DNA of 64,000 nucleotides from Raja brachyura (Eukaryota), in NCBI GenBank assembly GCA_963514005.1, contig OY740818.1, forward strand, positions 15,314,001-15,378,000. The letters run 5' to 3'. Position numbers and translations under genes: made by a program. This document shows positions 32,501-35,500 of the stretch, piece by piece; position 1 is the first letter of the stretch, and each line of letters opens with the position of its first letter. The notes below the pieces were generated by a model that saw only the letters and a program-made list of their open reading frames with translations, was not told where the DNA came from and ran no database searches.

Positions 32501-35500
32501 CTGCTATTCCATATTTAATAACTGACTCTAGCAGTTTCCCCACTACCGATGTTAGACTAACTGGTCTGTAATTCCCCGCTTTTAAAAAGTGGGGTTACAA
32601 TTCATGGACATTGATAGGAAATTAAAGTATCAACTGTGAAATGTAGGAAACACAAAATAAATATGTATTAATCCTACATCTACATAGCACTTTCCATATT
32701 GTTGTCGTGTAGCATTTAGTCAGTGAAGTAGTTTTGAAGTGGAATGAAATTATAACTAACTGAATAGGTCATTTGTATGTTACGTGCACTAGGTGCAAGT
32801 CAGTTAGATTTAATTCACTTTTTGTCTGCGGTTTATGCCGTGAGCTATTCTTGTGTATGGTCTGGAAAAGGGCTCTCTTCATAAATTGTAAATCGAGCAT
32901 AATTTGATTTGAGGTATTTTGGTGTATGTCGTCAAATTTGTAGAGAAAAAGAACTGCATGGAATAAAGATATAAAGAATTTCAAAATGAGCTAATAAGCA
33001 TATCCATCACTGGATTTCATGGTTTTGTGGGGATGAAGCAGTACTTTCTTAGGTTGCATTTGAAGTTATTAGTTCACCAGCATGCATGAAAGTGGATTAC
33101 AATGATTCACGTGCAGGAAGGGAAGGGATGTAACACCATACCAATGGGCAAGGGGCGTCAAGCCCATCCAGGCCAGGTAAGCCCGGTTCACCTTTTTCTC
33201 CTTTAATGCCTCGAAATCCCTGTTTACAAAATGAACTGACTTGGTTAATATAAATGCATCTTGAATCAACGTTCACATAGATGGAGAAAGGAGGGAGGAC
33301 ATTGGAGCAGACGAGTCGACGTGTGACAAGTGACACGTTATCAGAGATCGTTCTTTCTATGTCCAGTAAGTACCAAAAAGGAAACTTTGACGCAAACCAT
33401 CAGACCTGCATTGGACACACTCACCAATCTTAAGGCCAGAAAAGCTCTTTGATTACTGTTAGGAATTGAGATGGGCCATTGTGGCAGGCCAAGAATTTCC
33501 GACTGCCTTTTGTCACTGGAGAGCAATGGGACCTTGGTTCATGTAATCCACCATTCAGCTGTAGCTCTGAAACCGCATTACGGTGGTATCAGACACCAGC
33601 CAAATGAAGTAGAGTTATGACCAAGTAACCATATCAATATATGAAAGCAGGCTTCAGGTTTGCACTGAAAGAATTCATATCAGTGGTACCATTGGGCAGG
33701 GGTGCTAGTTCCTCCCTTATTTTTCCATTACAATACCTGACATTTTCAACGACATCATGAGAACATACCAATGGACAAGGTGCATCTAATCCAGGCACTC
33801 CTTGGTCTCCCTTATCCCCTTTAGGCCCTTTAGCACCTCTCTTTCCCTTCTCCCCCTGCAAACAATATTTTTATTAGTCAAAGAACAAGACACTATAGAA
33901 AAAAAGGGGAGAACAGAATGTTGAATTAACACTTCCCGATTTTAACTCAAATTTGTTTCATTAAAACATTTGCTTCATCATTGATTAAATTGTTAGGACA
34001 GTTATACTTAATTGTAAACTTCAGTAGCATTAAGTTTTTTAAAGGTATGATACTGACGATGTACTAACACTTACAGAAGATTGTTTCTGATACAGGCTGA
34101 CTGATTAAATAGTCCTTCAGTGTTTGGAAACACTTTTTCTTGAATTTATGATTCAGTTATTCCTTTTTTTGCACAGAGTATAGTTTTTAGCAAGAAGATA
34201 GTTTAAAGATGTTTAAGGCTCAGAATAAATTGTTAAAAAATGGAATCTGTACCCTGTTTTGTATTATTTTGAAATTAGAAAGAGATTACAGTGGGTACTT
34301 TATTAAAACTTGAGCCTCCTTATAAACATCAAGGCAAATTAGATAAAGAATTAGAGGATCAGAATGTTCATTAGTTTAGGAGAAATTGAGCTGTTATGGA
34401 CTTGCTCGCACAATAGGATCACTGTCAGGAAGAAGGAAATGCTGTTTCAGGAAGGAGGAAGCAGGATAATTTAGGATTAATGTAGAACAGAAGGAAGGGA
34501 TGAAGGGGGTAAGGCAGACCTGTTGGAAATAATAAGAAAACAGGAGAAAAATAGCAAAGAAAAAAGAAACAATGCAGTATAATTCAAACATCTACCACAT
34601 ATCACACACATTCCAATTGGCAACACTTTCACTTGTTTATCTGTTTGAATTAGGATTACTTTGCACAATGGATATGAAAAATTAAATAATTTAAATTGGC
34701 AATTTCAAATAAAAAGTGATTTTGCCTAAATCAAACAGATACTTAAAAAAATTACATCCATCTTTTTAATTAAAGTGCAGTTGGACCCTAGATTACACGT
34801 AAGGCATGGTTAAGGCTGGATATTTTTATTACGGGCTGTTGATTATTGTAATAATCTCTACATTGCTGATGACAAGGGTAATATTTTCCTCTGATTCGCA
34901 AAAACATACAAATCTCTTATTCCAAAAATATTAATTACAAGCTATTGTAATTGCATATACATGTAATTCTTTATTTGTGTCAGCAGAAATGACAGAAAAT
35001 TGGACAAATCAGTATAACACATAATAACACATATGACTCCTCTGGAAGGTTAAATCGTAATGGAACCATGAAGAGCTCGCTAACAGGATACCAACGTTGC
35101 TGAATGGTACAAAACAGAGGGTGATGGTGGAAGGTTGCTTTATTGATTTGGAGGCAGATTGCTGTTTGTCATCGAAGTCAATGATTTGGAGGAGAATGTA
35201 CAAGGCATGAGCAAGTCTGCAGATGACACTAAAATAGGTGGTAGCATAGAAGTGAAGATGGTTATCAAGAATTACAGATGGAGCTTGATCAGCTAGGAAA
35301 ATTTACTATGGAATGGCAAAATGAAGTTTAATTCAGATAGAAGTAAGGTGTTGCATTTTGGGGTGTCAAACCAGGACAGCATTTTCACAGTGATTGTAGG
35401 GTCCTGGAGAATGTTGCAGAGCAAAGGGGTCTAGGAGTACAAGTAAACGGTTTCCTGAAAGAGGCATTGAAGGTAAACAGGGTGATGAAGAAGGCTTTTT

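Follow-up and report, generated by a model that had tools for sequence, protein, structure and literature searches.

Conserved RBFOX-type motifs behind one of two duplicated exons in a COL13A1-type collagen gene, with a candidate structural element in the intron between them

The minus strand of the window (the whole 64,000-nucleotide stretch of DNA analyzed here) carries a membrane-associated collagen gene built of many short Gly-X-Y exons. A sequence-only reading of this DNA had assigned the gene to the COL13A1 type, an assignment that holds; exon B reads GLPG...CPL as in COL13A1 rather than GQPG...CQL as in COL25A1. The gene includes a pair of neighboring homologous exons in a common phase: exon A (33769..33855, minus strand), with 87 nt, phase 0 and 29 codons, and exon B (33142..33219, minus strand), with 78 nt, phase 0 and 26 codons, both ending in LDAPCPL. 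They are separated by an intron of 549 nt and flanked by a 36-nt exon upstream (36865-36830, minus strand) and by a downstream exon of 13 codons (27979-27941, minus strand) that corresponds to the COL13A1-type end of NC4. The flanking introns contain reverse-transcriptase fragments (window ~31500-32570 and 35100-35500), which we take to be LINE-like and of CR1 type. At 26599 on the minus strand, after the GCWNK exon, we also noted a candidate last exon that starts with TGA.

The earlier proposal that A and B are a duplicated pair is supported by their orthology to a catalogued tandem-duplication pair. According to the available part of PMC8373072, human COL13A1 (event 49) and COL25A1 (event 50) each contain an 87/78-nt pair classed as a tandem-duplication substitution, the last common ancestor of both events is placed in Gnathostomata, and human transcripts are catalogued with A or with B. 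Exon A is the counterpart of the 87-nt exon and exon B of the 78-nt exon of event 49, so that the same two exons of 29 and 26 codons stand in the same order and with the same lengths in the window; the catalogued events are human and, in that part of the source, are given without regulatory elements, whereas the window holds a non-human orthologue. Four database proteins (P0176, P0177, P0188, and P0189) splice A directly to the next exon, and one database gene model (P0033) strings A and B together.

A search with a degenerate exon B pattern identified three homologous loci in metagenome contigs and none in genome and viral contigs. One of these (L002) is COL13A1-type and bird-like, its exon A peptide matching a named bird protein, while the other two (L001 and L003) are COL25A1-type. 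Exons A and B and their lengths are kept in all three, and the introns of the four loci could not be aligned by MAFFT beyond the splice-site zones. A second test, at the peptide level, drew on spurious ORFs from other vertebrates that continue past exon B into intron sequence.

The exon B acceptor zone (33220..33250, minus strand) contains a candidate branch point at about -31 to -25 and almost no pyrimidine tract. All four loci share an AAACAG acceptor at exon B and lack a pyrimidine tract there, which would fit an exon in need of an activator. We rejected enforcement of exclusion through reading frame or NMD, since 87 and 78 nt are both frame-neutral, and we rejected simple steric exclusion, since the intron is too long and the candidate branch point lies near the acceptor. 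Because neither frame nor the length of this intron can enforce exclusion, a further element would be needed.

Two RBFOX-type motifs follow exon B on the minus strand. The UGCAUG already pointed out in the sequence-only reading (33081..33086, CATGCA on the plus strand) is indeed present and starts at +56; a proximal UGCACG (33110..33115, +27) was absent from that reading and is better conserved than the distal motif. The other loci have UGCAUG or GCAUG at the place matching the proximal motif and a second UGCAUG at about +79 to +123, with GCAYG falling at +28 and +57 in the window, +24 and +80 in L002, +30, +117, and +123 in L001, and +38 and +79 in L003. The order behind the exon B donor is the same in 4/4 loci, namely a pyrimidine tract, GCAYG (+24 to +38), and a second UGCAUG (+57 to +123), and GCAYG is absent from the A-B intron in all four. 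By comparison, the chance of GCAYG per 25-nt zone is ~3% at the window-wide rate, and GCAYG is present anywhere in +1..+100 in only 4 of 13 other exons examined from this gene.

The read-through ORFs extend this pattern. GCATG is encodable at +16..+42 in 25/29 COL13-type and 20/25 COL25-type ORFs (45/54 together) against 59/571 background windows, a peptide-level rather than DNA-level count in which at least 14 downstream residues were required, the self match and two spliced models were dropped, close relatives occur among the ORFs, and selection was by similarity to a query that itself included the flank, although the window peptide itself is incompatible with GCATG. The compatible motif is found in both paralogues and not always in the same reading frame. 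GCACG is described as a primary Rbfox motif, and downstream GCAUG or GCACG as activating exon inclusion, in the available part of 10.1101/840272; exon B has such motifs well inside the ~200 nt downstream within which they are counted, conserved in 4/4 DNA loci. A role for RBFOX downstream of exon B, as had been suggested, is therefore likely, given the recurrence of the motifs in COL13A1- and COL25A1-type loci. At +27 and +56 the motifs are already proximal, and because both lie within 60 nt of the donor no RBFOX bridge is needed; the locus does not belong with the RBFOX RNA bridge cases.

Related motifs were seen elsewhere in the gene and its relatives. ACUAAU (33073-33068, minus strand), presumably a QKI-type core motif, stands 8 nt after the distal UGCAUG and is absent from that place in L001-L003 by eye. 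Seven fish-like COL13-type ORFs (P0008, P0011, P0014, P0020, P0026, P0027, and P0028) have a UGCAUG-compatible element in the A-B intron, 110-140 nt before exon B, and the window has no such motif. The 36-nt exon upstream of A is followed by UGCAUG at +20 (36810-36805, minus strand) and +56 (36774-36769, minus strand) and is likely a second RBFOX-responsive exon of the gene, judging from these motifs. A further UGCAUG (38235-38230, minus strand) lies ~52 nt before a 54-nt exon (38183-38130), where RBFOX binding would usually be expected to repress; this exon has an in-frame alternative acceptor at 38174.

The sequence-only reading had combined RBFOX with a long-range duplex that would loop out exon B. 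The complementarity itself is exact, as plus-strand 33092-33101 (GTGGATTACA) is the reverse complement of plus-strand 33542-33551 (TGTAATCCAC). On the minus strand, box 1 (33542..33551) is the upstream arm, 332 nt upstream of exon B, and box 2 (33092..33101) is the downstream arm, at +41 after the exon B donor, with the distal UGCAUG 5 nt past it, as described. The extension beyond the core is also real, but its length, put at ~14 bp, had been understated: the extended arms (33560-33538 and 33106-33083) form ~20 pairs at -23.1 kcal/mol, or -27.5 kcal/mol with 36-nt windows, and the 3' arm reaches two bases into UGCAUG.

To judge this match we compared it with dinucleotide shuffles, other exons, and other parts of the window. 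The perfect 10-mer was equalled or bettered in 36/600 shuffles when 110 nt of downstream intron were considered, in 131/600 for 300 nt, and in 95/300 for 550 nt. The energy of -23.1 kcal/mol was reached in 4/300 shuffles for zone +33..+110, which was picked after seeing the box, and the extended energy in 5/150 shuffles for +1..+300. Two of 13 other exons of the gene are bracketed by a duplex of the same geometry at <= -23.0 kcal/mol, and a duplex at <= -23.1 kcal/mol occurs somewhere in 26 of 35 tiles, each 1.8 kb long. On these shuffle, other-exon, and tile counts, the match between the boxes is genuine, and any excess over chance is mild. In the ensemble fold of 33000-33781 the box pair has probability 0.0, likewise with spans of 500 and 800, and a helix that crosses the box pairing wins; the global fold of 33040-33800 has z = -1.14, with 4/20 shuffles equally good. 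Box 1 and its flank (33536-33550) resemble the 3' part of exon A at 13/15 nt, a weak look-alike, and box 1 may be a decayed exon remnant or a chance occurrence.

Neither arm of the box pair was recovered together with its partner in the homologous loci. Box 2 has no match with <=2 mismatches at +1..+250 after exon B in L001-L003, and box 1 has two loose matches in L002 and none in L001 or L003. The pair is kept in 0/3 loci, all of them distant, a comparison that would overlook any structure restricted to close relatives; the best duplex of the same geometry was matched by 8/15 (L002), 11/15 (L001), and 5/15 (L003) shuffles. L002 has a word resembling box 1 at 331 nt before exon B, but no partner lies downstream and we dismissed it as coincidence. 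Among the read-through ORFs, box 2 is compatible with 0/43, one reading phase escaping the test owing to a stop within box 2, and box 1 with 1/32, only 12 of which reach the box 1 distance. A search for short read-through ORFs gave two matches, neither close to the window. In a separate observation, the exon A acceptor of L001 (2523-2536, plus strand; CATTGTATCCACAG) resembles window box 2 (33092-33104) with one gap, as does the matching acceptor of L003; this likeness of COL25A1-type exon A acceptors to box 2 is probably a coincidence.

These results bear on the idea of a lineage-specific switch in which in vivo pairing of the boxes would loop out exon B and rival RBFOX binding at the neighboring UGCAUG. 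The extended duplex lies in the 1-3% tail of the energy shuffles, is unsurpassed at the locus among duplexes between the intron and +33..+110, overlaps UGCAUG with its 3' arm, and passes the published PCCR cut-offs of >=10 nt and <= -15 kcal/mol; moreover, nested folding programs cannot show both structures, because the box duplex crosses the helix between element R and the exon B donor described below. Yet its perfect core is at chance level, its ensemble probability is nil, and the conservation of both arms that defines PCCRs was found neither in the one COL13A1-type and two COL25A1-type loci nor in the ORF test. Even conserved PCCR-type predictions have a false discovery of 10% to over 50%, as stated in the available part of PMC8052449, and an isolated intronic match of 10 bp deserves no trust unless it is conserved. 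We consider such a box switch rather improbable, and the structural half of the mechanism first proposed is not borne out.

The helix that wins in the window ensemble involves a different element. Element R (33689..33718, minus strand) is a purine-rich segment at +51..+80 after the exon A donor, and its predicted partner is the exon B donor zone (33147-33118). This is the dominant long helix of the ensemble, with 25 pairs and -30.2 kcal/mol (1/300 shuffles); no other window in the intron scores better against the donor zone than R, and the predicted helix ends beside the proximal RBFOX motif. An alternative partner is Y1 (33281..33309, minus strand), a pyrimidine-rich segment at about -90..-62 before exon B with a GCTCC core. 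These pairings suggest a model in which R has two alternative partners. Pairing with the exon B donor zone would loop out B and hide its donor, pairing with Y1 would stay within the A-B intron, and RBFOX at the motif beside the helix would tip the balance towards exon B. Such a structure would be an addition to RBFOX control and would not exclude it; we put it forward tentatively and regard it as doubtful.

Support for the R-Y1 arm of this model comes mainly from the COL25A1-type loci, where Y1 lies ~100 nt before exon B. There R-Y1 reaches -28.7 kcal/mol (L001) and -30.5 kcal/mol (L003), with 0/60 shuffles each, native pairs beat re-wired ones, and the pairing dominates both folds; the outer helix differs in sequence between L001 and L003 and is paired in both. 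The 15-nt core of R in the window differs from that of L001 at two positions. At the peptide level, GAGGAACNAGC is compatible with 4/21 COL25-type ORFs, three of them at -423..-426, the Y1 core GCTCCTC is compatible at -126..-90 with 18/21 COL25-type ORFs versus 8/117, and an R-like motif with 7/13 COL13-type exon A read-throughs versus 5/41. Against the model, GCTCCTC is only weakly enriched in COL13-type ORFs (9/27 versus 18/136), the R core is absent from COL13A1-type L002, where R-Y1 is weak (-13.3 kcal/mol, 51/60 shuffles), and R-donor zone pairing is marginal in L002 (16/300) and L001 (25/300) and absent in L003 (114/300 shuffles). In the window, R-Y1 has -22.0 kcal/mol (1/60 shuffles) and ~0.1 expected pairs; the exon B donor zone is the preferred partner of R, and a higher score results when R-Y1 is re-wired to L003. 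R has two partners in the window (-30.2 and -24.7 kcal/mol), which are inconsistent across the other loci. Re-wired R-donor pairs can also beat native pairs, as is expected for purine/pyrimidine tracts, and all R and Y zones were picked after looking. R is nevertheless the best candidate for a further exclusion element, ranking ahead of the boxes on these predictions.

A third possible pairing involves Y2 (33116..33128, minus strand), a pyrimidine tract that follows the exon B donor, precedes the proximal motif, and is present in all four DNA loci. Y2 could pair with the purine-rich exon A acceptor, hide it, and so favor B. The Y2-exon A acceptor duplex has, at -27.4 kcal/mol, the lowest energy of any short duplex in the 1.8-kb region and reaches -19 to -22 kcal/mol in the three other loci. 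Its purine arm, though, is collagen coding sequence that pairs equally well with Y1 (-18 to -27 kcal/mol), its registers vary among loci, and the Y2 arm becomes available only once the exon B donor is transcribed, all of which makes this mechanism highly improbable. In the A-B intron of L002 we observed two other strong predicted helices, +349..+373 with -61..-36 and +440..+468 with -118..-92 (23 and 24 pairs). Both cover the zone before the exon B candidate branch point, and they were not seen in the window.

In the FGFR genes, both arms of the IAS2/ISAR pairing reportedly lie between the two alternative exons. The FGFR1/FGFR2 IIIb/IIIc system, with its IAS2 (ISE-2)-ISAR pairing, offers a model for R-Y1 as a duplex shared by paralogues; as presented in the available part of PMC12772994, that duplex is experimentally proven and NMD-backed, whereas R-Y1 is predicted, strong only in COL25A1-type loci, and frame-neutral. 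The same part of PMC12772994 describes the closest regulatory precedent, SCN-alpha exons 5a/5b with ISRE1/ISRE2 and Rbfox2. Like COL13A1/COL25A1, the SCN-alpha genes have a duplicated exon pair with UGCAUG motifs common to the paralogues, and they also have an intronic duplex close to the donor of the second exon, with conservation reaching elephant shark (PMC12772994). Both arms of the SCN-alpha duplex are downstream of the second exon and conserved, and the duplex is backed by PCCR, proximity-ligation, and minigene data (PMC12772994); the collagen boxes, in contrast, bracket exon B and are not conserved. PCCR loop-outs near an RBFOX site, such as GPR126 exon 24, share the geometry proposed for the boxes, but PCCRs need both arms in conserved intron regions, where the boxes have so far not been placed (PMC8052449, available part).

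Published catalogues touch on these genes at several points. COL13A1 and COL25A1 rows are absent from five supplements of PMC8052449, whose full PCCR tables may lie outside these, and from the available supplements of PMC9741552. Hatje et al. (PMC5740500) give different clusters for COL13A1 and one unidentified cluster for COL25A1, and the A/B peptides do not occur in the one file of that work that was searched. COL13A1 splicing shifts under myocardin (PMC9343278) and a COL25A1 MXE that failed inspection (10.1101/2022.06.15.495552) are reported in the available parts of these sources with the exons not named. Extensive splicing of the collagen XIII and XXV genes is described, and its control is not, in the available parts of PMC4678570, PMC12669723, and PMC7848082. 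In our literature search, neither RBFOX motifs or structures at the A/B collagen exons nor RBFOX binding or a response to RBFOX depletion there came up, although genome-wide CLIP and PCCR tables may contain them.

Taking the motifs, the acceptors, and the pairings together, the reading we prefer, and hold to be probable on sequence evidence, is that RBFOX bound to the two motifs favors inclusion of exon B over a default exon A, and that the 10-bp box pairing is incidental or lineage-confined. A and B would be an old duplicated pair near the end of the collagen XIII gene; RBFOX proteins would bind the two conserved motifs behind exon B and, once bound, would switch on this exon, whose acceptor has so little pyrimidine tract. 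Exon A would be used by default, and the choice would be made by competition between the two acceptors. We infer the activating direction from the general rule that downstream sites activate. The sign of an RBFOX effect can be reversed, since in SCN9A the knock-down of Rbfox2 raised exon 5b use according to the results of PMC12772994, a source whose abstract and results, in the part available, are opposite in sign for the knock-down effect. A more far-reaching proposal, which we think unlikely, is that COL13A1 and COL25A1 inherited a splicing module that predates their duplication, with twin RBFOX motifs behind B and an R that toggles between its intronic partner and the B donor; RBFOX at the foot of the helix would free B, setting the C-terminal end in nerve and muscle.

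Collagens XIII and XXV build the neuromuscular junction, and mutations in them are linked to congenital myasthenic syndrome 19 and to cranial dysinnervation or arthrogryposis. The last collagenous segment of both collagens exists in two ancient versions, and we found no description of their control. The A/B exon pair was already catalogued. The conserved RBFOX motifs behind exon B, which the paralogues share, offer a direct test of A/B control, and after SCN-alpha and FGFR would provide a further case of regulatory elements outlasting gene duplication.
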